From positions 1,590,001 to 1,622,000 of the forward strand of contig NZ_CP011304.1 of NCBI RefSeq assembly GCF_000981785.2: a DNA stretch of 32,000 nt, read 5' to 3'. The notes beneath the pieces were generated by a model. The model had not been told where the DNA came from. It saw nothing but the letters and a program-made list of their open reading frames with translations, and did no database searches. Each line of letters starts with the position of its first letter. The first letter of the stretch is position 1. The DNA is from Microcystis aeruginosa NIES-2549 (GTDB lineage Bacteria > Cyanobacteriota > Cyanobacteriia > Cyanobacteriales > Microcystaceae). Made by a program: the position numbers and the translations under genes. Below are positions 3,852-31,330 of this stretch, in pieces.

Positions 3852-4919
3852 ATGGCGATCGTTCTAGTAACCGGTTCTGCTGGTTTAATCGGTTCCGAAT
3901 CAGTCAGATTTTTTTGTGATCGGGGTTATACCGTTGTCGGCATCGATAATAATATGCGTCAGGTATTTTTTGGCGAAGACGCTTCAACGGAGTGGAATCG
4001 AGCCAAATTATCCCAAGATTACGGGGATAAATACATTCACCATGCTGTGGATATTCGCGATCATGAAGCTATTGCAGCTATATTTAAAACCTATAGTCAT
4101 GATATATCCTTGATTATCCACACGGCGGCGCAACCTTCCCACGATTGGGCAGCTAAGGATCCCTATATGGATTTTAGTGTCAATGCTAACGGAACTTTAG
4201 TATTATTAGAAAATACTCGTCAACACTGTCCCCAAGCAGTATTTATTTTCTGTTCCACTAATAAAGTTTACGGGGATAGACCGAATGAATTACCTTTAAT
4301 AGAAAAAGAATTACGTTGGGAAATCTCGGAAAATCATCCTTATTTTGCTCATGGTATTGACGAGTTGATGAGTATTGATGCTTGTAAACATTCTTTGTTC
4401 GGTGCCTCGAAAGTGGCGGCGGATGTATTAGTACAGGAATACGGGCGTTATTTTGAGATGAAAACTGCCTCTTTTCGTGGCGGTTGTTTAACCGGTCCAA
4501 GTCATTCGGGAACGCAATTACACGGGTTTTTATCCTACTTGATGAAATGTACGATGATCGGCAAAGAATACAGTATTTATGGGTATAAGGGTAAGCAGGT
4601 ACGCGATAACATTCATAGTTACGATCTCGTCAATGCTTTCTATCATTTTTATCAGGCCCCGCGAGTAGCAGAAGTTTATAATATCGGTGGTAGTCGCTTT
4701 AGTAATTGTTCCATGTTAGAAGCTATTCAAGAATGTGAAGCGATTGCGGATAAAAAGTTAAACTGGCAATATGTGGAGACTAATCGCATTGGTGATCATA
4801 TCTGGTGGATTTCTGATGTGAGTAAGTTTAAAAATCATTATCCTGATTGGCAGTTAACCTACACAGTAACGGATATTCTCAAAGAGATTTTTAGTCAAAA
4901 CGTTAGCCGTTGGACTTAG
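3852..4919 (+). CDS. Extended SDR, NAD-dependent epimerase/dehydratase (CDP-paratose/tyvelose 2-epimerase-like)
   Basis: 355 aa with N-terminal Rossmann motif [10 protein letters not shown] and STNKVYG. The GxSKxAAD context resembles RfbE-type epimerases, but the sequence reads FGASK (F183, K187) where YxxxK is expected. Confidence 0.7.
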
Positions 4920-5097
4920 GGCAAATCAAGAATTATTCTGGTCAATTTTTATCTGCTAGTTTTCCCTCGTTACCAAAGTGATTTTTAGCAAAATATACTG
5001 CTAGTAATTGAGGGACTATGTTAATTAGTTAGTAAGAGGATATTAATAGCAATATTGACCTAAAAAAACTAAACCAGAGCATATTTAAGAGACTATT

Positions 5098-6369
5098 ATG
5101 TTAACTAAAATCTACAAGAATAAAATTTTCCGATTTCTCATTGCTGGGGGAGTGGCATTTCTAATCAACTTATTCTTAATTTATTGGTTCATTGACGACT
5201 TGGGATTTAATACCCCATTTCTGAAGAATGTTGCTAATGTTATTTCGATAGAAATATCTTTAATTGCTAGTTTCTTTATCTATAGAATCTGGGTGTGGAC
5301 TGGAGGAGATTGGACAATCAGAGATGTGATTTTGATACAACTTCCTCTCTATCATCTCTCGGCAGGTTTAGCCGTTTTACTGCGAGTTTTCTTGATATTT
5401 CCCTTCTTAAACTGGTTAGGAATTAGCCCCGGAGTTAACACAATGATTGGGGTTTTACTGGGAGCTAGTATTAACTATGTTGCCAGTGATAGCCTAATTT
5501 TTAAACCCAAGAATAAGACTAATGAGACAGAAATGTACTATCCCGAAGGATTAGCACCAGCTTTCGAGATGGACGGTTACTCTCACCCACGTCAATCAAG
5601 GGATAACCATGCAGTAAAAACCTTATCAATAGTTATCCCTGCTTACAACGAAGAAGATTGCATCGAAAGCACTGCTCACTTAATATCCGAACGTTTAGAA
5701 CGGGATAAAATTGATTATGAAATCCTAGTTGTTAATGACAATAGCAAAGATAACACCGAAGCAGTTCTGCAAAAAATCAACCAAGAAAACCCTCGGATTC
5801 GCTACATCAATAACTATTATCCCAATGGTTTTGGTTTTGCGGTACGCTGTGGATTAGAAAATTTTAGCGGCGATGCGGTGGCAGTAGTAATGGCAGATAA
5901 TTCCGACTCTCCCGATAACATGGTGGACTATTATTATAAACTGCAAGAAGGCTACGATTGCGTTTTTGGTTCTCGTTTTATCAGGGGAGGAAAAGTTATT
6001 GATTATCCCATACACAAGTTATTCGTCAATCGTTTGGCTAATCTCTTCATTCAAGTTTTATTTGGGCTAAAATTTAATGATACCACTAACGCCTTTAAAA
6101 TCTATCGGAAGGAGGTTATCGAAGGAATCTCACCTCTACTCTCTCACCATTTTAACTTAACAGTAGAGATGCCCTTAAAAGCAATCGTGCGAGGATATTC
6201 CTACACGACAATTCCCATCACTTGGCGCAATCGTACCACGGGGGTTTCCAAGTTAAAACTCAAAGAAATGGGTAGTCGTTATTTATTTATAGTTCTCTCT
6301 ATCTGGTTAGAAAAATACCTTTCTCGAGGCGACTATAAGCGCAAACAGAAAAAGAATCAAGTCGGTTGA
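5098..6369 (+). CDS. GtrA-like membrane domain fused to a family-2 glycosyltransferase (polyprenyl-phosphate sugar synthase type, DPM1/ArnC-like)
   Basis: 423 aa. Residues 1 to ~135 form a hydrophobic GtrA-like four-helix region (FRFLIAGGVAFLINL...NYVASDSLIFK). The C-terminal region has GT2 motifs IVIPAYNEE, VVNDNSKDNT and MADNSDSP. Confidence 0.75.
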   Translation: MLTKIYKNKIFRFLIAGGVAFLINLFLIYWFIDDLGFNTPFLKNVANVISIEISLIASFFIYRIWVWTGGDWTIRDVILIQLPLYHLSAGLAVLLRVFLIFPFLNWLGISPGVNTMIGVLLGASINYVASDSLIFKPKNKTNETEMYYPEGLAPAFEMDGYSHPRQSRDNHAVKTLSIVIPAYNEEDCIESTAHLISERLERDKIDYEILVVNDNSKDNTEAVLQKINQENPRIRYINNYYPNGFGFAVRCGLENFSGDAVAVVMADNSDSPDNMVDYYYKLQEGYDCVFGSRFIRGGKVIDYPIHKLFVNRLANLFIQVLFGLKFNDTTNAFKIYRKEVIEGISPLLSHHFNLTVEMPLKAIVRGYSYTTIPITWRNRTTGVSKLKLKEMGSRYLFIVLSIWLEKYLSRGDYKRKQKKNQVG

Positions 6370-6396
6370 TAATTATTATCTAGTGGAGTATTATTG

Positions 6397-7461
6397 ATGA
6401 CTAGGCAAGTGTTAATTACTGGTGGTGCGGGTTTTGTGGGCAGTTCTTTAGGTTTGGGATTAGCCCAACGTTATCCTGATTGGAAAATTATCGCTTTAGA
6501 TAACTTAAAACGTCGCGGTTCTGAATTAAATATTCCCCGTCTCAAACAAGCGGGAATTGAATTTGTTCATGGAGATGTCAGAAATGCGGAAGACTTAGAA
6601 GCATCCGCTTTGCCAGTGGATTTAATCCTAGAATGTTCGGCAGAACCTTCCGTTTTAGCTGGTTATAATTCCCCCGGCTATGTTTTGCAGACTAACTTAA
6701 TTGGAACGATTAACTGTTTAGAATTAGCTAGACAAACCCAAGCAGATTTTATTTTTCTCTCCACCAGCAGAGTTTATCCCATTGCCTATCTTAATCAATT
6801 AAACTATACAGAAACAGATACTCGTTTTCAGTTATCTGAACAGCAAAATTTACCCGGGGTTTCTGCTTTTGGTATCAGTGAACAATTTCCCTTAGATTTG
6901 CCCCGTTCTCTCTACGGTTCGACTAAGTTAGCATCGGAATTGATTATTAATGAATATGGGGATGCCTACGGATTAAGAACTTTAATTAATCGTTGTGGAG
7001 TTTTAACTGGTCCTTGGCAGATGGGAAAAGTTGATCAGGGAGTTTTTGCCCTTTGGGTGGCTAATCATTACTTTCAGAAGTCCTTAAAATATATCGGTTA
7101 TGGGGGTACAGGGAAACAGGTTAGAGATTTTCTTCATGTAGCTGATTTACTCGATTTAATCGATATTCAGATTGCTAATTTAGAACAATTCAAAGGGCAG
7201 ACTTTTAATGTGGGGGGTGGGCAAGATTTTTCTTTGTCTCTTTACGAAACCACAAAACTATGTCAGGAAATCACGGGCAATAGTATAATGATTGAGGCAG
7301 TTCCCGAAAATCGCACCGGAGATATGCCAATTTTTATAACTGATTCTCGCAAAATCAGTTCTATAACTGGATGGCAACCCCAGCGAGACGGTAGAAAATT
7401 AATCCAAGATATCTTTGATTGGATTTATAATCACGAGAAGGAATTAAAAGGTATTTTTTAA
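6397..7461 (+). CDS. Extended SDR, NAD-dependent epimerase/dehydratase
   Basis: ITGGAGFVGS Rossmann motif and canonical YGSTK (YxxxK). The track starts at TTG 6394, but ATG 6397 lies 8 nt after GGAG (6385-6388), so I prefer 6397. Confidence 0.75.
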   Translation: MTRQVLITGGAGFVGSSLGLGLAQRYPDWKIIALDNLKRRGSELNIPRLKQAGIEFVHGDVRNAEDLEASALPVDLILECSAEPSVLAGYNSPGYVLQTNLIGTINCLELARQTQADFIFLSTSRVYPIAYLNQLNYTETDTRFQLSEQQNLPGVSAFGISEQFPLDLPRSLYGSTKLASELIINEYGDAYGLRTLINRCGVLTGPWQMGKVDQGVFALWVANHYFQKSLKYIGYGGTGKQVRDFLHVADLLDLIDIQIANLEQFKGQTFNVGGGQDFSLSLYETTKLCQEITGNSIMIEAVPENRTGDMPIFITDSRKISSITGWQPQRDGRKLIQDIFDWIYNHEKELKGIF

Positions 7462-7471
7462 CTGAATAATT

Positions 7472-9697
7472 ATGCAAAAAAAATCTCTCAAATTACCTGT
7501 AGTCGTCAAGGGAATACTAATTATTATTACTGCCTACTTTTTTCTGGCAAATTTACCTAGGATTGACTGGTTAGAAATTGGTTTAGATGCTTCTTGGGCT
7601 TTTGCTATTAGTGATGCTGCCCATAAACAGTTAATTTTTGGACAAGATATTATCTTCACCTATGGACCACTAGGCTATCTGGTTCATGGCACATCTTTAA
7701 ATCACAACTTTTCCCAAATTATCTATTTTCGCTGGTTGATACACCTTTGTCTATTAGGGGTGGTTATTCTCAGATTATTATTTATTAAAAGCTATAGCAA
7801 TCAAATAGTTTTTGTGCTGTCAATTATTTTTGCTACTCTAGTAGGAAATCCCTACAACAGTATCGGCTTTACTGTTGATTATCAGATGACATTTATCCTC
7901 CTGATACTAATGTCTTTTGATAACTTTTTTCAAAAGTACATCAATTATTTAGCTATAGCTATTGGCATGATCAGTGGGTTCTCTATACTCACTAAACTAA
8001 CTCTAGGAATTTATCTAGCAGGCAGCCTGTTTATCTACATATTTGTTAATATTGTTCGGGGATATTTTCAGAAGTCACCATCGATAGTTATAAAAAATGT
8101 TCTCGCTGGTATTAACTTAACTTTAAGCATTCCTTCCATTGCCTTTATTTTTCTCTATCCAGCCTCTTATAACCGAGCCTTTATTCACATTATAGTTAAT
8201 CTTTGCATTGCTGGAGGAGTAGCTTTGGCTCTCTGGTTTATCGCCAGATCTGCCCGCCTATCGGCACCCCCCGTATTAAGGGAGGCAAGGGGGATCAAAG
8301 GCAAAATCTATCTTCTATTTAATCAGAACTACTTACTTAACTTCTTACCTCTGTTAGTATTTTATGGGCTTTATGGGTTACTTCTTCTCCAAACAATTAA
8401 TCTAAATAATTTTCCCTCTCTCATGGAATATTTGAGTAATTCTTGGCAAATTTCTTCTGGTTATTCCAGTGCGATGAGTATTGTAGGAAATTACCCGCGT
8501 TTACTAATTGCCTTGCTCTGCTTTGCCTTAAGTTTGCTTTTAATGTCGCTGGCAATTATAGACCAAAAAATTAGTCTGGCTATTGCCTATATTTTCCCTA
8601 TATTTTTATCATTTAAGCATGGATTTGTTAGGCAAGATGCTCACGTTGTTGTTTTTACACTTGTGGTTATTCTCTTAGCTTCTCTCTATACAATAATTAT
8701 TAAAAACTCTCGGTTTAAGAAGATTGCCTATTGTGCTTGGGGAATAATTTTTTTGGGATGTATTCTTATCACCTCTAGTCCTAATCGGACTATACTGGAA
8801 AATGCTCGCCAGTGGAGTAATTTCAGTCCCGATAGAGTGTTTAATAATATCGGGGTTGTCATTTCCTCTATGCTTAATCCCACAGAATTAAAGATGCGAG
8901 GTGAAAGAAGTACAACTCAAAATTTACAAGTCATTGCTACCGCTACCAAAATACCTGATTCTGTGCTGGAAAAAGTGCAAGGCAAAACTATTGATATAAT
9001 TCCCTGGGAATTTTCACTTATTCCGGGCAATCAGCTTAATTGGAAACCGAGGCCGATTATTCAATCCTATTCTGCTTATACAGAAAAACTGGATGAACTA
9101 AATTATCAAAGCTTATCTCAATCTCCCAGAGATTATCTGATTTATCACTTTCAATCTATTGATGACAGACATCCTTTTTTTGATGAACCTAAAGCCTTTT
9201 CCTATGTGGTTTGTAATTATCAACTTGACTCGGTAAATTCGCCCTTCCGCGTCCCCGCAATCAAAACCAACTTTTATCTTCTAGAAAAACAAAAAGTCAG
9301 TCGTTGCAGTCCAACCCCTTTAGGAGAGACTACTAATGTTACTTGGGATCAAGTCTATGAATTACCTACTCGTAATAGTGGGATTACTCGTGTTCAAGTT
9401 AAATTTGAATATTCTTGGTTGGGTAAAATAGTCAAACAACTCTTTAGAATCCCTCCCGTGATAATTAACGTTAATTATCTCGATGGAACTCAAGCCAATT
9501 TTCGCTTTCTTCAAGATAATTCAGCTAATGGAGTTATCCTTAGTCACTTACCAAGAAATACTCAGGAATTAATGGCATTTTTTCAAGGAAAATTACCACC
9601 ACAAGTCAAATCCTTTAGCTTTTCTGTCAGTAATCCTCTGCTATTCTCGCCAGAAATAAAAGTAACGCCTTTTTGGGAAGTTGAGACTGGTTCATAA
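7472..9697 (+). CDS. Large polytopic membrane protein of unknown family, with a ~300-aa C-terminal non-membrane domain; possible GT-C-type lipid-linked-sugar transferase
   Basis: 741-aa ORF that is very hydrophobic over roughly the first 440 aa (more than 10 predicted helices by eye), followed by a hydrophilic C-terminal part. The ATG lies 10 nt after the preceding gene. The function is inferred only from operon context with the GtrA-GT2 gene. Confidence 0.6.
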   Translation: MQKKSLKLPVVVKGILIIITAYFFLANLPRIDWLEIGLDASWAFAISDAAHKQLIFGQDIIFTYGPLGYLVHGTSLNHNFSQIIYFRWLIHLCLLGVVILRLLFIKSYSNQIVFVLSIIFATLVGNPYNSIGFTVDYQMTFILLILMSFDNFFQKYINYLAIAIGMISGFSILTKLTLGIYLAGSLFIYIFVNIVRGYFQKSPSIVIKNVLAGINLTLSIPSIAFIFLYPASYNRAFIHIIVNLCIAGGVALALWFIARSARLSAPPVLREARGIKGKIYLLFNQNYLLNFLPLLVFYGLYGLLLLQTINLNNFPSLMEYLSNSWQISSGYSSAMSIVGNYPRLLIALLCFALSLLLMSLAIIDQKISLAIAYIFPIFLSFKHGFVRQDAHVVVFTLVVILLASLYTIIIKNSRFKKIAYCAWGIIFLGCILITSSPNRTILENARQWSNFSPDRVFNNIGVVISSMLNPTELKMRGERSTTQNLQVIATATKIPDSVLEKVQGKTIDIIPWEFSLIPGNQLNWKPRPIIQSYSAYTEKLDELNYQSLSQSPRDYLIYHFQSIDDRHPFFDEPKAFSYVVCNYQLDSVNSPFRVPAIKTNFYLLEKQKVSRCSPTPLGETTNVTWDQVYELPTRNSGITRVQVKFEYSWLGKIVKQLFRIPPVIINVNYLDGTQANFRFLQDNSANGVILSHLPRNTQELMAFFQGKLPPQVKSFSFSVSNPLLFSPEIKVTPFWEVETGS

Positions 9698-12850: not shown

Positions 12851-12884
12851 CTTCAGCTAAAATATCTTGGCACTGTCTCAAATC

Positions 12885-13493
12885 ATGGTTATAAATCTCG
12901 ACTCACCCCTAATACTTGAGGACAATAATCGCCCCCCTGTCTCTCAATTGCTAGAATTTCTCTTAACCAAAGAAAAAAACACTAAAAAAACTAAAGAAAA
13001 TCTGACTTTTGAGGCTTTAGTCGGTACTTGGCGATTATACTTTATCACGGGAACTCAAAAAGCGAAAAAGAGAGCGGGAATTGTTTTGGGGAAGGGTCGC
13101 TATCTACCATCCTGGTTAAAAATTACCATCTCTTACCAAAGAAATGAGAGTTTAGAACTGGGAGAATTTATCTCTGGAAGCGTCAGCAATCAGATAGTTT
13201 TAGGGGCAGTAAAACTATCTGTAAGCGGTCCGGTTAAGTTTTTTCCTAAAACCCGTCTTCTCGCCTTTGATTTCACCCGGCTCAACCTAACCCTATTTAA
13301 TCGCTCTCTCTATTCAGGTTTTATTAGAAATGGCCAGGTAAGCGAAGCGAATTTTTATCAGGAAAGTATCAAAAAACAGGCATTTTTTGCCTATTTTCTG
13401 ATCACAGAAACAATGATAGCAGCCCGGGGACGAGGGGGAGGATTAGCCCTTTGGGTAAAAGAGATAAGTGAGACAAAACTAGCTGAAAAATAA
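12885..13493 (+). CDS. Conserved hypothetical protein (possibly PAP/fibrillin-like)
   Basis: Long ORF. The GTWRLYFITG segment and the C-terminal ARGRGGGLALWV resemble fibrillin-family motifs, a weak call from memory. The track start is TTG 12867 and the first ATG is at 12885. Confidence 0.5.
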   Translation: MVINLDSPLILEDNNRPPVSQLLEFLLTKEKNTKKTKENLTFEALVGTWRLYFITGTQKAKKRAGIVLGKGRYLPSWLKITISYQRNESLELGEFISGSVSNQIVLGAVKLSVSGPVKFFPKTRLLAFDFTRLNLTLFNRSLYSGFIRNGQVSEANFYQESIKKQAFFAYFLITETMIAARGRGGGLALWVKEISETKLAEK

Positions 13494-21079: not shown

Positions 21080-21592
21080 ATGTTTTGGCGTATTATACTA
21101 CTTACCTTTCTGATTCCATCGGTCTATGGGGTGTTTGGCTGGTCGATCGCCCATGAGCGTTTATCATGGAGTGATTGGTTACTTGCCCGTGGTGATGAGA
21201 TGAATTGGACTCTCACTAGCGAATGGCTAGAAATCATCATCTATATCCTAGCGGTAGGGGTTATCCTCTCAATTGCCCTAGGATTAACTCTGTTTAGCGA
21301 CTTAATGCCGCTATTTTTCCGCAGTTGGTTTAAAAACGATATTAGCGCTGTATTATCAATTCTCGGCTGGTCTTTGGCGGTAGTCTTTATCTTCCACAAG
21401 TGGGCGGTATTTAGTCGAGTTTTAATTCTGTTAGCTGCTGCTATACTCGGCCGTCTAGAACTTCAGGAAGCGGGTTACAATAGGTGGCAAGTTTTCCTGA
21501 TGATCACCATCCTCTGCTTAGGTAGTTTTGGCCTGGGAATTTGGGCTTATCATCTTTGGGGTCAGGAATTTCATCAAGTTACTACTGATTAA
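21080..21592 (+). CDS. Hypothetical integral membrane protein (about 5 TM helices)
   Basis: 170-aa ORF, hydrophobic throughout, with no recognisable motif. The ATG directly abuts the repeat arm and no SD is visible, so the start is uncertain. Confidence 0.55.
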   Translation: MFWRIILLTFLIPSVYGVFGWSIAHERLSWSDWLLARGDEMNWTLTSEWLEIIIYILAVGVILSIALGLTLFSDLMPLFFRSWFKNDISAVLSILGWSLAVVFIFHKWAVFSRVLILLAAAILGRLELQEAGYNRWQVFLMITILCLGSFGLGIWAYHLWGQEFHQVTTD

Positions 21593-23945: not shown

Positions 23946-25223
23946 TTAAAAAACGAATATTAAACGTAAATGCCAATTATTAGCCGTTTCCCTCTCGATT
24001 TCGATGCGACGGATAAACTCACGAAAATAAAAACGGCGCTCGATTTCCGATAAATCTCGCCAAAATTGCGGAAAAGCAACGGCACGAGCGATAATAGTCA
24101 GGTTATCCGGGGGTAATTGGTCTAAACGTCCTTGAATCTGCGCGATCTCGTTTTTCAGTTTATAGGCCCGTAGATTAGCTGTTTCTCGATCTAAAATTCC
24201 CGCCGCTTCTAGGGAGGGCAATTGCGACAAAATATCGTTTTTTTGCCCTATTTCCTCGCTCATTCCCCGTTTGATCGTCTCTAAATCAGGTAAAGATATC
24301 TGGGCGATCGTCGGCGGTAGGTCTTGACAAATGCGCTCGATTGTGCTGTCGAGAATTTTTTCATAAGCGATCGCCGAACATTTTTTTGTCCGGGGACATT
24401 GCAAAGGTCGCAAATAGAGGTATTCTAGGCCCTTTCCTCGCGCTGTCACTTTGGTAATCGTCATCCCCGATTGACATTGACTACAGACGACTAAACCCGC
24501 TAAGGAACGCGGGGCGCTGGCACTGCGGGGGGGTAATTTGCGATTATTTCTCAGGATGCGATCGATCTGGGCTGCTTCTTCCCGGGAGATAATCGGGGTG
24601 TGGGTATCGGGGATAATATCTTGACCGAGATAGCACAAATCGCCGCGATAAACGGGATTGGTCAGCCATTTATGGGCAGTAGCTACCGATATCTTTTTAC
24701 CGTAGCGTTTTTCTAGATAGCGCACCGTGGAACGCAGGGAAGCAGAAATCAAAAAGCGATCAAAAAAGTCTTTGACTACCGGCGCGGTACTGCGATCGAG
24801 TATATAACGCTCCTTGCCACGACGATAACCGTAGGGTGCTTTTCCGGGGGGAGGTAAAGCTTGCAGACGATTGTGAGCGTGGCCAGCTTTTAAACGATTA
24901 CTTAGTTCGTTTTTTGATATTTCTTGCAGAATCTTGGCAAAATTCAGCTTATAATCTGGGTCTTCTAGGGCAATTATATCTATGTCGAGGGCTTCTAAGG
25001 ATTGTAAAATTTTGCTAACTTCTGTGCCATTGTCTCCCAATTCTGCTAGACGACGCAGGATCAGCAGTCGGGGGGGAGTCCCTTGACAATCGCGGAGCAG
25101 TTGCTGCCGTTGTGAGCGATCGCCAAAATCCTGATACACTTGTTCGGGAGAATAGGCCCAAATGGAGGCATCGGGGGGACTATCGAGCAGGGGATTGGTA
25201 TAGGTGTAGGCGATAATTTTCAT
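23946..25223 (-). CDS. Large serine recombinase family homolog (resolvase-like N-domain with apparently degenerate catalytic motifs, recombinase domain, zinc ribbon)
   Basis: 425 aa. Recombinase-domain motifs are GKAPYGYRRG...HKWLTNPVYRGD, and the Cys pairs are CSQCQS...CPRTKKC. The N-terminus MKIIAYTYTNPLLDS and LLILRRLAELGDN occupy the places of YxRxSxxxQ and LDRLxR. AGGAGG lies 12 nt upstream of the ATG. Confidence 0.7.
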   Translation of the reverse strand: MKIIAYTYTNPLLDSPPDASIWAYSPEQVYQDFGDRSQRQQLLRDCQGTPPRLLILRRLAELGDNGTEVSKILQSLEALDIDIIALEDPDYKLNFAKILQEISKNELSNRLKAGHAHNRLQALPPPGKAPYGYRRGKERYILDRSTAPVVKDFFDRFLISASLRSTVRYLEKRYGKKISVATAHKWLTNPVYRGDLCYLGQDIIPDTHTPIISREEAAQIDRILRNNRKLPPRSASAPRSLAGLVVCSQCQSGMTITKVTARGKGLEYLYLRPLQCPRTKKCSAIAYEKILDSTIERICQDLPPTIAQISLPDLETIKRGMSEEIGQKNDILSQLPSLEAAGILDRETANLRAYKLKNEIAQIQGRLDQLPPDNLTIIARAVAFPQFWRDLSEIERRFYFREFIRRIEIERETANNWHLRLIFVF

Positions 25224-25313: not shown

Positions 25314-25345
25314 AGCACCGCCATCGTTGCAATAATAGCGGTGCT
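25314..25345 (-). terminator. Probable intrinsic terminator of the dynamin-like operon
   Basis: 8-bp stem AGCACCGC (25314-25321) / GCGGTGCT (25338-25345), located 16 nt downstream of the 772-aa ORF stop. On the minus strand it is followed by GATTTTCGGTATTT. Confidence 0.55.
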
Positions 25346-25360
25346 TTGCTATAGCTAACG

Positions 25361-27679
25361 CTACTGAGAGGAACTATTTCTTTTCAAGGCAATTGCTAAT
25401 TGTCTCAGTCGTTCACTAACTTCTAAATTAAATTCTTGAGATTGCAAATTAGCGGGTAATTCTGCTACAAGCTGAGGATTCTCTTTATACCATTCGTTTT
25501 GAGCGACACCTGCCCATGTTCCTTCTTTTTCTCGAAAAATATCCACTAATCCTCTTAATTCTTGAATACAGTAGGACTCAAATCCTGCGGCTTCAAAAAT
25601 ACCATGGCGTAGATATTCTTCAAAAGCGTTAATATCATTAGTTACTTCAAAGGTAACAACCTCTCTGGGTGGGGTTAATTGGTCAGCCAAATCGATCCAA
25701 TTAACCCCAACTGTATCTACCGTCATTCCGATAACGTTTTTGGCAATTTCTGTTACACCTAATACCTGTTGACGAAGACTAGGGTTAAAGAGTAAATCAG
25801 AACCATACTTAACGTATTTTTTTAAGACTCTAAAAGCAGGTTCATCTCCTTGATAATAGTTATCAATTAGTTCCACATCAGCCCCTAATGATTTGACAAT
25901 TTGGCTGCGGGTATCACTGTTAACAGGACCGCGAATTAATGCTTCAGCAACGGGACGAGCAAACCTTAAAAATAACACTGATAAACTATTTTCTAACCGG
26001 GTTAAAAACTCCTGTTCTGAATAACCAATTAATCGTTCTTTTACTTGAGAACTTCCCCATAATAAAGAGGACATATAATCGACTAATTTTAAGGCTTCAT
26101 CTTTTAATTCTGCCGCTAATTGTCGAGCAAGGGCAGCCAAAAATGTTCTAACATCCCCATACAAGTCATCCCGCCAAGCATAATTAGCTCTTACTTTGTC
26201 GAAGTCTGGAAAAGAATTTGCGTCAAAAATAATTTCTTTTTTTCTTAAAGTTTCCTGTCTTAATTTTGCCATTTCACTGGCTAACAGTTGCCCATAGCGT
26301 TCTTTAAATTTTTCGATACTACTGGAAGATTCGTTATTAACTTTTTCTAAGGGTTTGTTAATGGCAGATGTTTCATAAAAGTTTTGTAAATCAGCTTTTA
26401 TCTGTTCCCATTTTCTATGCCACCATTCTGAAAAATCAATTCTTCTTCTTTCTTCTTCCAAGCGTTGTGCTTCTTCAGGATTTTCGGGAAATCTTTGACT
26501 GACAAAATGGTGAATATCCTCTGAGGTGCTGACAATTTTATCAATGGAAGCTTCACAGCGTTTCTTGAGAATTGCTACTCGCTCAGTATTAATATAATTA
26601 AAGATTTTTTGTTTAATTTCAGGGATTCCTGTAGCTTGAGTTCTTAACATTTCATCATCTATAATTCCAGTCAAAGTTTTTAATTTATCTTGAATATTGC
26701 TGGCTTTTCCGATTTCTAATTGAGTATGTTCTTCCGCCAGATTATTTAAGATTAAATAAGCTCCTGCTGAACCAGAAACAATGCGATTAACCGGTAAATT
26801 AGCGCGTTTTGACCAATCCTGAGAGGCTTCTGTAATATGAGTTTTAAGGGCTTCTGGGCTACCAAGAGAGTCAATATGACTTAAAAAGACAAATAATTTA
26901 TCAGCAATGGTGACATTCTTATCACCTTGTTCTGTAAATTTAATAATTTCTAATTCGGCTTCTCGAATACTGCGAAAACGCTGAATCACGATGACTGCAT
27001 CACAGTCAGATAACATTTGTTGGGCTTCATCAACGTGCTTGGCTAACCCAGAATCTGAACCAGGGACATCATAAAAGACGATTCCTTCTGCTTGAGCGAG
27101 TTTATTAGTATAAAGTCGTGCTTCTAGGACCGCATGGGCGTATTTTTCATCAGCAACGTATTTTTTTAGTTGTTCTCGGATGTCTTCTAGTCGAGTAAAA
27201 GGAATAACTAAATTACCTTCTCGTCTGACTTGTTTTAGGGTGATTTCGTTTTCTCTAATGGTGTTTAAGTCTTCTTTTGCGCCAACGGTTTCTAATTCTT
27301 TGAGAAGATGAATAAATTGTTCTTCGCTGCGGGTTTGCACTTCTAATCTTTGTTCAGATTCGCTTTTAACGGAATAAATTTGCGTGGTGGTAAAGGTACA
27401 TCTTCCCCCTTTGGCAGGAAGTAAATCACATTCTAACCATGCGTTAATAAAGGTACTTTTTCCCGCCTTTTCTAAGCCAACCACAGCAATACGAAATTCT
27501 CTTTTTCTCAGTCTTTCGAGTTGACGGTTAGCAGGTATTGCCTCTTGCAGGAGGATTTCTGTTAATTTAGAGGGAACTTCAGCTTGGGGAAGTTTGGCTA
27601 AGTCAACGGCAAAATGTTGGATATTTAAGACATCACTGAGGCGGGTTTCATAGTAAGATGATGCGGATTTCCAATCCAT
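25361..27679 (-). CDS. Dynamin-like GTPase (bacterial DLP), 772 aa
   Basis: G1 P-loop GLEKAGKST (aa 68-76), G3 DVPG (aa 204-207), and SHID (aa 267-270) at the G4 N/TKxD position, followed by a ~500-aa predicted helical region. ATG start with GGAG 8 nt upstream. Confidence 0.8.
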   Translation of the reverse strand: MDWKSASSYYETRLSDVLNIQHFAVDLAKLPQAEVPSKLTEILLQEAIPANRQLERLRKREFRIAVVGLEKAGKSTFINAWLECDLLPAKGGRCTFTTTQIYSVKSESEQRLEVQTRSEEQFIHLLKELETVGAKEDLNTIRENEITLKQVRREGNLVIPFTRLEDIREQLKKYVADEKYAHAVLEARLYTNKLAQAEGIVFYDVPGSDSGLAKHVDEAQQMLSDCDAVIVIQRFRSIREAELEIIKFTEQGDKNVTIADKLFVFLSHIDSLGSPEALKTHITEASQDWSKRANLPVNRIVSGSAGAYLILNNLAEEHTQLEIGKASNIQDKLKTLTGIIDDEMLRTQATGIPEIKQKIFNYINTERVAILKKRCEASIDKIVSTSEDIHHFVSQRFPENPEEAQRLEEERRRIDFSEWWHRKWEQIKADLQNFYETSAINKPLEKVNNESSSSIEKFKERYGQLLASEMAKLRQETLRKKEIIFDANSFPDFDKVRANYAWRDDLYGDVRTFLAALARQLAAELKDEALKLVDYMSSLLWGSSQVKERLIGYSEQEFLTRLENSLSVLFLRFARPVAEALIRGPVNSDTRSQIVKSLGADVELIDNYYQGDEPAFRVLKKYVKYGSDLLFNPSLRQQVLGVTEIAKNVIGMTVDTVGVNWIDLADQLTPPREVVTFEVTNDINAFEEYLRHGIFEAAGFESYCIQELRGLVDIFREKEGTWAGVAQNEWYKENPQLVAELPANLQSQEFNLEVSERLRQLAIALKRNSSSQ

Positions 27680-27691
27680 TAAATTAACTCC

Positions 27692-28147
27692 TTAAATACG
27701 GTTAAATTTTCTGAGAATAGAGACATTTTTGAGAAACCCTATTTCTGTAACCTTCCCTGTTGCATTAAGTGGAAGTTCTCGCTTCATTCCATACTGAGTT
27801 TCTTTACCAATGATATTACCTCCATTTTTGAGATTAATTCTAACGTAGAATTTTAATCGACTTTCAGGAGAGCGTCCTTCGTCCGGTATAGTCTCTACAG
27901 ATATTTTTTTATACTCTGGCACACATAAAAATTCTGTAGCACAATCAATTAATCTTACAACTTCATCTCTACTAAGAGAATCCCCTTTCCGCAACTTATA
28001 AACTGCTGATGCGGGAACGGCTAGACATAAAGAAGCTGTTGAATTACCTTGCTTTGTAGAACGAGTCTTGTCCTTGTCTATAGTATTAGATTTTATGGAA
28101 GATACAAATTCACGAAATTTTTTGCCAATATTCAAAACATCTTTCAC
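27692..28147 (-). CDS. 151-aa protein of unknown family encoded between the two DLP genes
   Basis: The GTG start overlaps the TAG of the upstream DLP by 1 nt (TAGTG), with GAGGA 9 nt upstream. Its TAA is immediately followed by GGAG and, 12 nt later, the ATG of the next DLP. No motif is recognised. Confidence 0.65.
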   Translation of the reverse strand: MKDVLNIGKKFREFVSSIKSNTIDKDKTRSTKQGNSTASLCLAVPASAVYKLRKGDSLSRDEVVRLIDCATEFLCVPEYKKISVETIPDEGRSPESRLKFYVRINLKNGGNIIGKETQYGMKRELPLNATGKVTEIGFLKNVSILRKFNRI

Positions 28148-30576
28148 TAATTCACATCCTCTTTTTCAAAATTTTCTAACTCAGCAAGGCTTTGTTTTAA
28201 AAATTTAGCTCTTTCTTGGATAGGTTTCCATATAATTTGTGTTTCCTCGTAGTTAGTAGTTATTTCCTGTTGAGCTTTTTCTAGGCTGGCTAAATAGCTA
28301 TTAAAAATGTCATGGGTTTTATGATCTACATTTTTTTTTAAATTATCAATCTGTTCTAATAGCCATTCAAACATTGAACATAACATTTCAGGTTCGCCCT
28401 GTTGCTGGAATTGATGAATCCAATTCTGTAAAAGAGTTTCAGTGCTTGGAATTTCTGCAATCATGCTTTCCTTTTTTTTCATCCATAGCCAGTGTTTAAA
28501 ACTTCTGTAAGTACCAGAACTGATTTCAATATCAGACTCCAAATTAAAGTCAAATTCCAGTTTTCTAGTAAATGTATTAAGTTCAGATTGTGGAAATTTT
28601 ATAACAAAATTTGGTGCTTTTTCTTCAGCACCCTTTTCTATATGTTTAATATGAAATCTAAATAATTCAGATACAGATTCCTCTATTCTGTTACTCTCCT
28701 GAGCAGACACTCTCTTTAATATTTGCGATAAGATGATAGTTAGATGAATTGATAAATTATTTAACTCTTTCTTAATTATTTGAAGATTTAATTTCTCTTT
28801 ATCCCTTTTTGCTGTGATTAATAAACCATTTCTTGCATCTGAACCTCTATAGCCCAATTGAATCAGGATATCCAAGTTGTTTTTTAGCATATTAACCTGA
28901 TTAACATTGGCCTTTTTAAAGTTGATATTGTCCAAATCAACTCTGCCATTATCTAAAGATTTAACTACTGCTTCTAAAACGTTTCTAATAACAGTCTTTA
29001 GTGCCTCTCTCCACTCAACTAAGGGAACTAATTTCTCTTGAATTTGGTCATAAGGGGGAGTAAATTGAAGTTCATTGATAGCCTCTCTTAAACTAGCTAC
29101 TAAATTATCGGCTGTTTTGGTATCAATATCTAATTTTTCAAAAACGGCTAGAGGCTTTCTTAATTTGGCATTACTAGCTTGGAGAAAAGAATCAAGATTT
29201 TCTTTTGTTTGTGATAACAATTCAGATTCTTGCTGATAATTTTCTTCTGAACTGTTAAGAATTGCCGTGGTCGTTTGTACTGCCCATTGTGCAATACTAT
29301 TTCCTGCCGCTACATTAAATTTTTCTATAGCTTGGGGAATAACTAATTTAGGAAAATGTTCTGCTATATGCTTGCTTAGTTTGTCTTCAAATTCTTCTGC
29401 ATAGGATTGTTTGAATAACTCTTTAGCAATTTGTTCTTGTTGAGAGACAGTCCATTTTTTAGGATCATTATCTAATTCTCCTTTTCTAATAGCATTCTTA
29501 ATTAAGAATTGAAAGTGATCAATAGCTTGTTCATGGGGTCTTAATAGTTGATTAATTCTACTTTGATCGTGTTCTGACCATTTATCTTTTATAGTAGGTA
29601 ACTCTTCTAAAATATCTTCAACTAATTCTTTATTTTCTTGGATTTGCAAAGCCAATAAAGCTGGCCATGTACTTAGTTTCAGAATTGTCAAATTTTCAAT
29701 CTCTTCATTGTACTCTCTTAGTTGTTTTGTTAATTCTAATTTAATATTCTTGGTAGTCTTTTCAATAAAACGCTGTTCACTCCTCGGCCATCTTTGATCT
29801 TTTCTAAAAACATCAATTTTATTGAGAATAAATAGCATTCGTGCAGGAGAGCCGCCTAAATCTTTAACTTGATCAACAACTTCTGATAACAAATTATCAA
29901 CTTTGTAAGGATCTGTTTCTTCACTATTATAAGTCACTAAACATAAAGCCTCACGACACTGTTTAATAATAGCTAGATTCCTCTCATCTCCGACATAAGA
30001 TAATCCGGGTAAATCTAATAACTTAACTCTAACCCCTTTAGGCAATTCTAAGAGACTTTCATCTTTAATCAGTCTGAAAGGATAATAAATATTTGCTTGA
30101 GGACAAGCTAAATTAGGTTGTTCTTCTCTAGCATCAATATAACTACTCATTGCATCATATAAAAGGTCATAAATTTCCTCATCGCTAATATTTTTCCATT
30201 CACCACATTTCCACAAGGCTCCAGGTGTTTTTTCAATAATTAAACCTTTTTCTTGGTTATATTCAATCGTAACTGCTCCTGCACTCATCTCACTGACGGC
30301 GGTTGGTACAATATCAGCACCACAGAGGAAATTAACTAAGGTACTCTTACCACTGCTCGTCGTGCCAGTCGTCGCTAAAATCAGGGTAGGATGGCGCAAT
30401 TCATTGATTAACACTTCTAAAGCTTTCTCTAGGTTACTAGAAAGTTCCTGGATTTCACCATGATAGGATTCAGGCAAATGCTGAATAATCTCCGTTTTGA
30501 AGTCACCCCAATAACCCGCTAGAAGGTTAGCTTTATTTTCCACTGCTTGGAAAACTTCGTAAGATTTTTGACCCAT
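28147..30576 (-). CDS. Dynamin-like GTPase (bacterial DLP), 809 aa
   Basis: G1 GTTSSGKST (aa 71-79), G3 DLPG (aa 188-191) and G4 NKID (aa 252-255), followed by a long helical, coiled-coil-like C-terminal region. ATG start. Confidence 0.85.
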   Translation of the reverse strand: MGQKSYEVFQAVENKANLLAGYWGDFKTEIIQHLPESYHGEIQELSSNLEKALEVLINELRHPTLILATTGTTSSGKSTLVNFLCGADIVPTAVSEMSAGAVTIEYNQEKGLIIEKTPGALWKCGEWKNISDEEIYDLLYDAMSSYIDAREEQPNLACPQANIYYPFRLIKDESLLELPKGVRVKLLDLPGLSYVGDERNLAIIKQCREALCLVTYNSEETDPYKVDNLLSEVVDQVKDLGGSPARMLFILNKIDVFRKDQRWPRSEQRFIEKTTKNIKLELTKQLREYNEEIENLTILKLSTWPALLALQIQENKELVEDILEELPTIKDKWSEHDQSRINQLLRPHEQAIDHFQFLIKNAIRKGELDNDPKKWTVSQQEQIAKELFKQSYAEEFEDKLSKHIAEHFPKLVIPQAIEKFNVAAGNSIAQWAVQTTTAILNSSEENYQQESELLSQTKENLDSFLQASNAKLRKPLAVFEKLDIDTKTADNLVASLREAINELQFTPPYDQIQEKLVPLVEWREALKTVIRNVLEAVVKSLDNGRVDLDNINFKKANVNQVNMLKNNLDILIQLGYRGSDARNGLLITAKRDKEKLNLQIIKKELNNLSIHLTIILSQILKRVSAQESNRIEESVSELFRFHIKHIEKGAEEKAPNFVIKFPQSELNTFTRKLEFDFNLESDIEISSGTYRSFKHWLWMKKKESMIAEIPSTETLLQNWIHQFQQQGEPEMLCSMFEWLLEQIDNLKKNVDHKTHDIFNSYLASLEKAQQEITTNYEETQIIWKPIQERAKFLKQSLAELENFEKEDVN

Positions 30577-30611: not shown

Positions 30612-30640
30612 ATTATAACGATAATTTTTTTTCCTGCCTA
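30612..30640 (-). promoter_or_regulatory. Candidate sigma70-type promoter of the DLP operon
   Basis: The minus strand reads TAGGCA (30640-30635), a 17-nt spacer, then TATAAT (30617-30612). This would place a TSS about 30 nt upstream of the ATG at 30576. It is a pattern match only. Confidence 0.3.
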
Positions 30641-30832: not shown

Positions 30833-31324
30833 CTAAACTGGTAAAAAATCAAAATCTATAATTTCTGCAAAGGTATAAGGACAAACTTGCGGAAACCTAT
30901 CAACAGATAAACCAGTTTTTTTGATTACCGATCGCTTGGCTTTATCATAAATAATATCTAGCCTAGAAGCCCCATAATTGTAGAGGGTTTTTGACTGGAA
31001 TAAAATTTCTAGTTCTAGACGGAAATTATCGATTTCATCGGCCCATCCCCGGCCACAATTACCTTTTTCAGTCAGCCAATACTGATACATTAATAAATGT
31101 TTAACGGTTTGAATTAGATAGCTTTCCACTTTGTTCCTTTGTTCTCTCCCCAAATCTTCTATCTCCGTTAAAAGATGTTCCCAATCTAAATTTTTAATCT
31201 CCCCGCGTCGAATTTGTTCAGTGGTTCGCTCAATCCACAAAACAAAGTCCTGATCATAAAGTTGTTTTAATTCTTCCACCTGCATAGATTTTTGGGATTG
31301 AGCCGTGTTTTTATTATCAATCAT
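30833..31324 (-). CDS. DUF29-family protein
   Basis: LYDQDFVLWIERTTEQIRRGEIKNLDWEHLLTEIEDLGREQRNKVESYLIQTVKHLLMYQYW matches the DUF29 pattern common in cyanobacteria (from memory). The track start is TTG 31330. I prefer ATG 31324. Confidence 0.65.
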   Translation of the reverse strand: MIDNKNTAQSQKSMQVEELKQLYDQDFVLWIERTTEQIRRGEIKNLDWEHLLTEIEDLGREQRNKVESYLIQTVKHLLMYQYWLTEKGNCGRGWADEIDNFRLELEILFQSKTLYNYGASRLDIIYDKAKRSVIKKTGLSVDRFPQVCPYTFAEIIDFDFLPV

Positions 31325-31330
31325 AAACAA

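Follow-up and report, generated by a model that had tools for sequence, protein, structure and literature searches.

A three-gene operon encoding two divergent dynamin-like proteins and an allelically variable partner protein in Microcystis aeruginosa and other cyanobacteria

A coupled three-gene operon in Microcystis aeruginosa NIES-2549

The 32,000-nucleotide stretch of Microcystis aeruginosa NIES-2549 DNA analysed here (contig NZ_CP011304.1, positions 1,590,001 to 1,622,000; referred to as the window and numbered from its first nucleotide) carries on its minus strand three coupled genes, evident from the list of open reading frames (ORFs), in the order DLP-A, small partner gene and DLP-B, where DLP stands for dynamin-like protein. 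On the basis of comparative analysis of homologous loci, we propose that DLP-A, the partner and DLP-B represent a new family and module of cyanobacteria, which is both ancient and self-contained. The features of the operon are as follows.

30612-30640, minus strand: promoter-like site TAGGCA-17-TATAAT, the top sigma-70-like match of the region (10/12, a consensus match only)
28147-30576, minus strand: DLP-A, 809 amino acids, MYAER_1586 (ORF and Dynamin_N profile)
27692-30216, minus strand: hyper-divergent exchanged cassette, comprising DLP-A from about residue 121 and the entire small gene (Microcystis comparison)
about 27692-29676, minus strand: class-defining block, comprising DLP-A residues 301-809 and the small gene (two-class pattern)
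27692-28147, minus strand: small partner gene, short allele, 151 amino acids, GTG start (ORF and homologues)
25361-27679, minus strand: DLP-B, 772 amino acids (ORF and Dynamin_N profile)
25314-25345, minus strand: intrinsic terminator, 12-bp stem with 6 GC pairs, followed by a T-run (terminator scan)

The ORFs, strands, lengths and coupling signals given in an earlier note on this DNA all match the ORF list: the stop codon of DLP-A overlaps the GTG start of the small gene in the sequence TAGTG, and 12 nt including a GGAG lie between the end of the small gene and the ATG of DLP-B. The hairpin that the note had placed behind DLP-B was recovered by the terminator scan. The promoter-like site is found about 36 nt 5′ of the DLP-A ATG, in a region in which the count of sigma-70-like sites is not above shuffled expectation. 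The GC content is 0.31-0.37 over the operon versus about 0.42 in the remaining window, and GC content at third codon positions (GC3) is 0.23-0.26 for the operon genes versus 0.30-0.47 for their neighbours in the window. A literature search for the locus tags or for a tripartite cyanobacterial DLP operon yielded no description, in line with the view that the module is uncharacterised, and the central observation of the earlier note, i.e. two divergent dynamin-like GTPases and an obligatory third component in one coupled operon, was borne out.

Two divergent dynamin-like GTPases

DLP-A, which is 100% identical to MYAER_1586 of M. aeruginosa NIES-2549, consists of a G domain (approx. residues 64-301) and a helical stalk (residues 303-803). 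Both large proteins had been read as dynamin-type GTPases, and both indeed pass the gathering cut-off of 27 bits of the Dynamin_N profile (PF00350), with 43.9 bits for DLP-A and 57.0 bits for DLP-B. The G motifs and P-loop lysines quoted for them are correct by alignment. DLP-A of the window features GTTSSGKST (residues 71-79, with K77), DLPG (188) and NKID (252), and the corresponding family motifs in 55 sequences are GTTSSGKS[TS] (G1), DLPG (G3) and N[RK]ID (G4). In DLP-B, the motifs are GLEKAGKST (68-76, with K74), DVPG (204) and SHID (267). Across the DLP-B family, G1 (GLEKAGKST) and G3 (DVPG) are present in 56/56 sequences, and G4 reads SRID in 41, SHID in 11 and SQID in 2, with the guanine-specifying Asp kept in every sequence aligned. 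From this distribution, SHID is a Chroococcales variant of SRID within a G4 motif of the [N/S]RxD type. The suggestion that SHID marks a regulatory subunit, or one of altered nucleotide specificity, thus did not hold, since the motif is a lineage variant which retains the Asp and occurs in the more conserved of the two DLPs, alongside invariant G1 and G3 motifs. A degenerate G4 was rejected on the same family alignment.

A recent duplication does not account for the pair, as BLASTP similarity between DLP-A and DLP-B is not significant beyond the P-loop. Similarity of both proteins to structurally solved DLPs is almost absent at the sequence level. The AlphaFold2 (AF2) model of DLP-A (predicted local distance difference test score, pLDDT, of 78) matched mitofusin-1/2, IniA, SynDLP, BDLP and Cj-DLP1/2 in a Foldseek search with probability 1.0 and E-values of 1e-8 to 1e-10. 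The model therefore points to a protein of the mitofusin/BDLP class with the helical stalk fold of that class, a feature evaluated on the DLP-A model only. Neither DLP-A nor DLP-B contains a hydrophobic segment of transmembrane (TM) grade.

Two relatives of DLP-A from metagenomic contigs (P0040 and P0041, 1279-1281 aa) feature a tandem duplication of the N-terminal helices and G domain: residues 6-396 are repeated before a full-length copy (449-1280), resulting in a two-headed DLP-A. For these relatives of about 1,280 aa, fusions of DLP-A, partner and DLP-B were considered and rejected, since what is duplicated in them is the G domain of a DLP-A protein.

A partner protein family with a conserved C-terminal domain

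Profiles of Pfam, PADLOC, NCBIfam and PHROG gave no match for the small protein of the window. A word-indexed search identified ten relatives in Microcystis and Snowella, and tblastn against 79 related loci together with two profile searches extended the family to most cyanobacterial orders. In an hmmsearch of 1.84 billion representatives, 240 family members were retrieved, 112 of them at E ≤1e-30. Each of them is a standalone protein (68-364 aa) with neither a Pfam domain nor an informative name. The 151-aa protein, first described as an orphan, is thus a truncated allele within a cyanobacterial family of 240 representatives.

The typical partner measures 250-300 aa, with about 260 aa as the usual length. 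It combines a variable N-domain (about 110 aa, with little conservation), a single strongly hydrophobic helix, and a C-domain of about 115 aa that is conserved and runs from a CLxVPAS motif to a terminal FNRI; long forms span 226-320 aa. A TM helix is predicted in 130 of 208 partner proteins. The C-terminal flank of this helix bears a mean net charge of +2.45, compared to -0.26 on the N-terminal side, and is the more positive of the two in 97 of these 130 proteins. Because of this positive-inside bias, the C-domain is predicted to be cytoplasmic and the N-domain extracytoplasmic, a topology that derives from charge bias alone. The AF2 model of a long allele (P0006, of the class I defined below) is confident (mean pLDDT 82) and begins with a helical N-domain, followed by a disordered linker, by a long helix (residues 115-147) and by an alpha/beta C-domain with pLDDT >90. 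Foldseek comparison of the partner model yielded no relative among PDB structures (best E ∼1) or the viral structures of BFVD (best E ∼0.2). The top BFVD match was an uncharacterised protein of the Microcystis phage MaMV-DC (A0A075BUY5), and was not significant (E 0.21, probability 0.15, TM-score 0.18-0.28).

The window protein comprises the C-domain only (approx. residues 37-151, starting from a CLAVPAS motif). DNA alignment with long class I alleles reveals several in-frame deletions, which together removed about 115 codons including those for the N-domain and TM helix. Remnants of the deleted parts are still recognisable, and the DNA of the C-domain is 95-100% identical to that of long alleles. 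The small gene of the window is an in-frame deletion derivative of a long class I allele. The same short allele was found in four further 90%-identity clusters comprising 25 sequences, and partners devoid of the TM helix have arisen independently in Nostoc, Dolichospermum and Phormidium/Geitlerinema. All such alleles retain the C-domain.

Loss of the N-domain and anchor raises the question of whether the NIES-2549 copy is crippled or heading to decay, its intact ORFs representing a mere snapshot. The size of the loss, TM helix included, would fit this explanation, as would the decay of the module in other genomes (see below). However, every deletion is in frame, the GTG/TAG overlap and the 12-nt spacer are preserved, and the C-domain is almost unchanged. 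The short allele recurs in further sequence clusters, as noted above, and more than 20 Microcystis assemblies encode DLP-A proteins 97-100% identical to that of the window. The DLPs flanking TM-less partners in the other genera are intact, and DLP-B still displays a ratio of nonsynonymous to synonymous divergence (dN/dS) of 0.07 in the class I pair. Because reading frame, coupling signals and C-domain conservation all argue against it, functional decay is considered very improbable, and is ranked last among the explanations discussed here.

Distribution, synteny and genomic neighbourhood

A scan of one genome per GTDB species uncovered at least 79 loci encoding DLP-A relatives. Every locus with enough sequence displayed the order DLP-A, partner, DLP-B, which amounts to 66 of 83 loci when four extra Microcystis contigs are counted. 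Taxa with this arrangement include Nostocales, Oscillatoriales and Chroococcales, with loci from Microcoleus, Trichodesmium, Okeania, Moorena, Planktothrix, Crocosphaera and Geminocystis, as well as Snowella, Spirulina, Pseudanabaena, Chamaesiphon, Leptolyngbya and Phormidesmis. A partner C-domain encoded between DLP-A and DLP-B, with a spacer of about 11-12 nt, characterises both the window and the family. The distance between partner and DLP-B is 9-17 nt in 58 of the 66 loci, and translational coupling is therefore conserved. DLP-B of the window is 70% identical to its counterparts in Nostocales and 86-89% identical to those of Crocosphaera and Geminocystis. Among the loci recovered, the sole one from outside the phylum lies on a 3.9-kb contig of an Anaerolineales metagenome-assembled genome (L079), which encodes a DLP-A homologue of 34% identity followed by a DLP-B-like start; this could represent binning contamination or a rare transfer beyond the phylum.

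In six Microcystis lineages the operon occupies the same locus, after psaA-psaB-DUF29, and linkage to psaAB is confined to Microcystis. Given this shared position and the presence of the operon across cyanobacterial orders, the idea of an accessory region of the strain was abandoned. Homology of the window to the five other Microcystis loci stops at positions 25316-25355, just past the terminator, and the XisF-like recombinase gene and corA that follow in the window are absent from these five loci. Since synteny ends at the terminator, the two genes are unlinked to the operon, and association of the operon with the recombinase as an excision element was rejected.

The dip in GC content noted earlier was confirmed, and its reading as a compositionally foreign block was not. 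In 38 of 39 loci, both DLP genes have a lower GC content than the flanking DNA (means of 0.363 and 0.377 versus 0.430), regardless of host GC content. As AT-richness runs through the whole family, and the operon is syntenic in Microcystis, low GC content is no signature of foreign origin here, and recent foreign acquisition was rejected on these grounds. Candidate reasons for the AT-richness are low expression, amino-acid composition, and repeated exchange from an AT-rich gene pool.

The genomic context was surveyed with the 150 nearest neighbours from about 40 loci, called by a crude longest-ORF heuristic and given as raw counts with no genomic background. Most neighbours are housekeeping genes, and no flanking gene family recurring between genera and no consistent defence island were found in this set. 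Some families with a possible link to defence were observed, i.e. Uma2 (PDC-S03, 12 genes), AAA_21/AriA-like genes (3) and mad genes (3-5), in addition to DUF2887 (4). Genes of the Uma2 family are very abundant in cyanobacteria generally, and their occurrence at 8% of neighbours is thus no demonstrated enrichment. Searches with tblastn for DLP-B and the partner in 50,697 phage and 72,556 plasmid records detected no homologue, and PHROG profiles gave no match for any of the three proteins. Carriage by phages or plasmids was rejected on these results.

Allele classes, selection and recurrent decay

Comparison of the window with M. aeruginosa NIES-843 revealed a striking contrast within the operon: the psaB-DUF29 flank is 98% identical at the DNA level and DLP-B 98.3% identical at the protein level, versus 64.7% for DLP-A and 44% for the partner. 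The pattern across the six Microcystis lineages is as follows.

DLP-A residues 1-120: 91-98% identical
DLP-A residues 121-300: three types
DLP-A residues 301-809: two classes, which share 54-65% identity with each other
Partner: 43-49% identical between classes, in perfect co-segregation with the stalk class
DLP-B: 97-99% identical

Class I consists of NIES-2549 and M. ichthyoblabe, as well as W13-11 by its partner allele (DLP-A of W13-11 is frameshifted), and class II of NIES-843, M015S2 and LSC13-02. Synonymous divergence (dS) between classes amounts to 1.1-1.4, which is saturated, compared to 0.08 in DLP-B, the DLP-A N-terminus and flanking coding sequence. Mosaic recombinants occur among the Microcystis haplotypes. 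Class II shares 77-83% protein identity with Crocosphaera sp. XPORK-15E, more than it shares with class I, and the dS between the class II cassette and Crocosphaera (0.37-0.56) is below that of DLP-B (0.71) and of the DLP-A N-terminus (0.97). It follows that the two genera exchanged the cassette after their split. The class I partner is nearest to an allele of Snowella (63-67%).

Selection regimes differ along the operon, with dN/dS of 0.07-0.12 for DLP-B, 0.2-0.5 for DLP-A and 0.33-1.14 for the partner, in which values within classes reach 0.55-1.14; these are Nei-Gojobori estimates, with much noise where sequences are short and similar and with saturation from a dS of about 1 upwards. In a mirror-tree analysis of 45 loci, partner distances correlated with those of the DLP-A stalk (r 0.83; partial r 0.63 given DLP-B), versus a partial r of 0.04-0.09 between partner and DLP-B given DLP-A. 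DLP-B is thus strongly constrained, and DLP-A and its partner form a fast-evolving, horizontally exchanged pair.

Decay by frameshift, A-B fusion deletion or loss of DLP-B was observed in about 11 loci, some of them in metagenome-assembled genomes in which assembly errors could be responsible. DLP-A is frameshifted for instance in the isolate C. watsonii WH8501, whose DLP-B is also split by a 2-kb insertion. Deletions fusing DLP-A and DLP-B were found in Nostoc linckia z4 and in a further locus (L076), and DLP-B has been lost from the isolate T. erythraeum IMS101, from Anabaena UHCC 0204 and from Cronbergia. Because such decay recurs, the module is dispensable rather than essential. To this extent the accessory character proposed in the earlier note is retained, and part of the module carries alleles of the kind expected at a locus of conflict or specificity, hyper-divergent and exchanged horizontally.

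Several of these observations bear on the possibility of a housekeeping membrane-dynamics machine for thylakoid biogenesis or maintenance, or for cell division, comparable to SynDLP, Nostoc BDLP or Streptomyces DynA/B, with allele diversity reflecting neutral introgression. The broad and largely phylum-restricted distribution of the module, the very strong purifying selection on DLP-B and the location of the operon directly downstream of psaA-psaB in Microcystis would all be compatible with such a role, and cyanobacterial DLPs are usually discussed in connection with thylakoid dynamics. Nevertheless, pseudogenisation and partial deletion recur in free-living isolates, several lineages have independently lost the N-domain and TM helix of the partner, and linkage to psaAB does not extend beyond Microcystis. 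Deep allele classes would be unusual at a housekeeping locus, and the GC3 of 0.23-0.26 could hint at poor codon adaptation and a low level of constitutive expression. Because recurrent decay argues against it, this explanation is ranked third, and appears quite improbable.

The same data may also be viewed in terms of conflict with phages. In a dedicated anti-phage system, the DLP-A stalk and the partner, especially its extracytoplasmic N-domain, would sense phage components or phage-induced envelope damage, and DLP-B would seal the membrane or remodel it abortively. Such a system would resemble Eleos, DynA or animal Mx in function, yet be built from different families. Paired DLPs are proven defence systems elsewhere, and much of the allele structure fits: two ancient haplotype classes segregate at one locus within a species (dS of 1.1-1.4 versus 0.08 in the flanks) and form mosaics; alleles are exchanged between genera, as seen from the dS between class II and Crocosphaera of 0.37-0.56 versus 0.71 for DLP-B; and the partner evolves at dN/dS of up to 0.55-1.14 within classes. 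It is typical for defence genes to be lost or to decay repeatedly, the operon is AT-rich across hosts (38/39 loci), and a few of the 150 neighbours are defence-like (Uma2/PDC-S03, AAA_21/AriA-like and mad genes, at the counts given above). On the other hand, the PADLOC LeoA profile gave no match and LeoBC a marginal one (E 7e-4, 16.8 bits), and neighbours are mainly housekeeping genes, none recurring across genera, in contrast to the 60% of defence-adjacent operons in Eleos. The locus is fixed beside psaAB-DUF29 in all Microcystis examined, the 70% identity of DLP-B between Microcystis and Nostocales and its spread across orders look vertical and core-like, and plasmid or phage copies of DLP-B or the partner were not found among the records searched. 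Since allele structure, exchange, loss and AT-richness fit conflict genes, and neighbourhood, fixed locus and profiles do not, a dedicated anti-phage system is ranked second, as a possible but somewhat unlikely explanation.

A possible adaptor-dependent dynamin machine

What the data above establish is the architecture and family membership of the genes, their conservation and allele structure, the selection regimes acting on them and their recurrent decay, and any account of function has to start from there. The explanation we favour, and to which we give about an even chance of being correct, is that the module is a dynamin machine for the repair or surveillance of membranes, which is heterotypic, dispensable and dependent on an adaptor. 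An adaptor role for the partner is suggested because neither DLP has a TM-grade segment, while 130 of 208 partners carry one. Coupling of the partner to DLP-A is suggested by their co-segregation in all six Microcystis loci and by the partial r of 0.63 in the mirror-tree analysis. We infer the physical contacts, topology, membrane activity and trigger of such a machine as follows. The ancestral partner would be a single-pass membrane protein with a variable outside N-domain, a TM helix and a conserved cytoplasmic C-domain. The C-domain would dock on the stalk of DLP-A, and the TM helix, when present, would place a heterotypic assembly of DLP-A and DLP-B on the membrane. With both G domains binding and hydrolysing GTP, damaged membrane could then be tethered, fused or sealed, in the way of other paired bacterial DLPs. 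DLP-B would represent the conserved engine, and DLP-A with its partner a recruitment or specificity cassette, presumably transferred among strains and genera through homologous recombination, for which DLP-B and the conserved DLP-A N-terminus would serve as anchors. The module would be conditionally useful, under membrane stress possibly including damage inflicted by phages. Given that the NIES-2549 partner has lost its N-domain and TM helix, a soluble cofactor or altered recruitment would be expected in this strain.

Several points weigh against a membrane repair or surveillance machine of this kind. About a third of partners, including that of NIES-2549, are devoid of a TM helix, and membrane anchoring cannot be a universal role of the family. 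Export of an N-domain of about 110 aa without a signal peptide would be unusual, and the helix might not span the membrane. The paddles of BDLP bind membrane without TM-grade hydrophobicity, and the DLPs of the module may likewise bind unaided. The mirror-tree correlation and the co-segregation of partner and stalk could stem from co-transfer of adjacent DNA rather than from contact. Finally, ancient exchanged allele classes suit a role in conflict, i.e. defence, at least equally well.

It is tempting to speculate further that cyanobacteria at large use the module as an unrecognised kind of innate immunity or envelope surveillance, built on dynamins and equipped with a swappable sensor. The extracytoplasmic partner N-domain and the DLP-A stalk would then form a polymorphic recognition cassette, kept as ancient allele classes under balancing selection and traded between genera, and the near-invariant DLP-B a common effector that seals or remodels the membrane. 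We regard this idea as unlikely. If true, it would provide a bacterial analogue of the logic of animal Mx, IRG and GBP proteins, of which the NIES-2549 allele would be a naturally ‘uncoupled’ form.

The module offers a specific and testable way into the in vivo role of bacterial, and above all cyanobacterial, DLPs. What is new here is a three-component module, discrete and spread across the phylum, whose unannotated partner family is without detectable relatives in sequence or fold. Its architecture makes the testable prediction that the partner docks on DLP-A and that DLP-B is the conserved engine. Partners with and without the TM helix, two deep haplotype classes and decayed copies provide a natural allelic series for genetics. 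If the module is a repair machine, it would be the first case of adaptor-dependent dynamin recruitment in bacteria. Should the cassette stem from conflict with cyanophages, it would be relevant to the dynamics of Microcystis blooms at strain level and to the evolutionary link between bacterial and animal dynamin immunity.

Other genes in the window

The rest of the window is ordinary chromosome, with M16 peptidases, a sugar-modification cluster, glycogen synthase, allophycocyanin, corA and the 3′ end of psaB. The following genes deserve mention.

30833-31330, minus strand: DUF29 gene, between psaB and the operon, behind a strong psaB terminator (31358-31329)
23946-25223, minus strand: XisF-like large serine recombinase gene, directly downstream of the operon, at the Microcystis synteny break
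21080-21592, plus strand: ORF of 170 aa with no Pfam match, among housekeeping genes
12867-13493, plus strand: ORF of 208 aa with no Pfam match, among housekeeping genes
7472-9697, plus strand: ORF of 741 aa without Pfam match, at the end of a low-GC (0.35-0.39) cluster (3852-9697)

The DUF29 gene is found at this position in all Microcystis loci examined, and not in other genera. The XisF-like recombinase is atypical. Its N-terminus, MKIIAYTYTNPLLDS, is without the usual Y-x-R-V-S motif of the catalytic serine, its match to the Pfam Resolvase profile begins at profile position 48, and it scores 145.8 with the NCBIfam XisF profile, for which the cut-off is 375. The low-GC cluster contains genes for two NAD-dependent epimerases/dehydratases and a GtrA-GT2 glycosyltransferase, and the 741-aa ORF may encode an uncharacterised component of a surface-polysaccharide locus.

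Comparison with known dynamin-like systems

The earlier note had placed the operon near Eleos, which like it is an operon of dynamin-like GTPases with intact P-loops. In Eleos, the two genes, or three when split, are all dynamin-derived, unlike the middle gene here. The PADLOC LeoA profile matched none of the three proteins at E up to 0.1. The LeoBC profile matched DLP-A with E 7.2e-4 (16.8 bits) over stalk residues 383-552 only, and DLP-B with E 0.041, at the level of superfamily resemblance, and LeoA ranks only 43rd among the structural matches of DLP-A. Some 60% of Eleos operons, which reportedly also occur in Cyanobacteria, adjoin defence systems (Millman et al. 2022), compared to the scattered defence-like neighbours observed here. 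The proposed relationship was thus given up, and Eleos membership rejected on profiles, architecture and neighbourhood.

Adjacent, co-directional pairs of divergent DLPs are also known from Campylobacter jejuni (DLP1/DLP2, 5OXF/5OWV) and from Nostoc punctiforme (BDLP1, ‘Tandem B’, with Npun_R6512, ‘Tandem A’). The mitofusin/BDLP class and an expected heterotypic assembly are common to these pairs and the module, the DLP-A model matching 5OXF, 5OWV and 2J69 with probability 1.0. The module differs by the conserved third gene between its DLPs, and by the length of DLP-A and DLP-B, which exceed BDLP by about 100 aa. In phmmer comparisons with BDLP (2J68), DLP-A and DLP-B reached E-values of 0.06 and 0.025, respectively, over the P-loop region only, and a profile of 48 DLP-A sequences did not retrieve BDLP at E up to 0.01. 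By sequence, the proteins therefore do not group with the clades of BDLP1 (Tandem B) or Npun_R6512 (Tandem A). Six clades of cyanobacterial DLPs have been defined (KGK, HSR1, chaperone, Tandem A, Tandem B and unclassified; Jilly et al. 2018), none of which was described with the DLP-A/partner/DLP-B architecture. Full-length similarity to SynDLP (Slr0869) is also absent, with DLP-B matching over residues 57-119 only (E 1.6e-4) and DLP-A giving no match.

The mycobacterial iniBAC operon, which is linked to envelope stress, is similar in layout, with three genes encoding two DLPs (IniA and IniC) and the smaller non-GTPase IniB, and IniA is among the top structural matches of DLP-A. In iniBAC, however, iniB comes first, whereas the small gene of the module lies between the DLP genes; the phylum is also different, and IniA is about 600 aa long. 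Homology of the partner to IniB was not detected, although no search aimed at it was made. DynA of Bacillus subtilis, which delays phage lysis and repairs membrane, likewise brings two DLP units together, has a non-essential role in stress and phage response, and clusters in a membrane-dependent manner. Its units are fused, and it binds membrane through its own D1 region with no dedicated TM adaptor. The NCBIfam DynA profile (NF052648) matches the G domain of DLP-B with 45.8 bits, far under its family cut-off of 1600.

A purely functional analogy for the proposed mechanism is provided by eukaryotic Drp1, a cytosolic dynamin without an anchor of its own, which is recruited by the small single-pass, tail- or TM-anchored proteins Fis1, Mff and MiD49/51. 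There is no homology, and topology and partner domains are unrelated. Paired bacterial DLPs are thus already known, and what is new in the cyanobacterial module is its dedicated partner family and its cassette-like allelic architecture.

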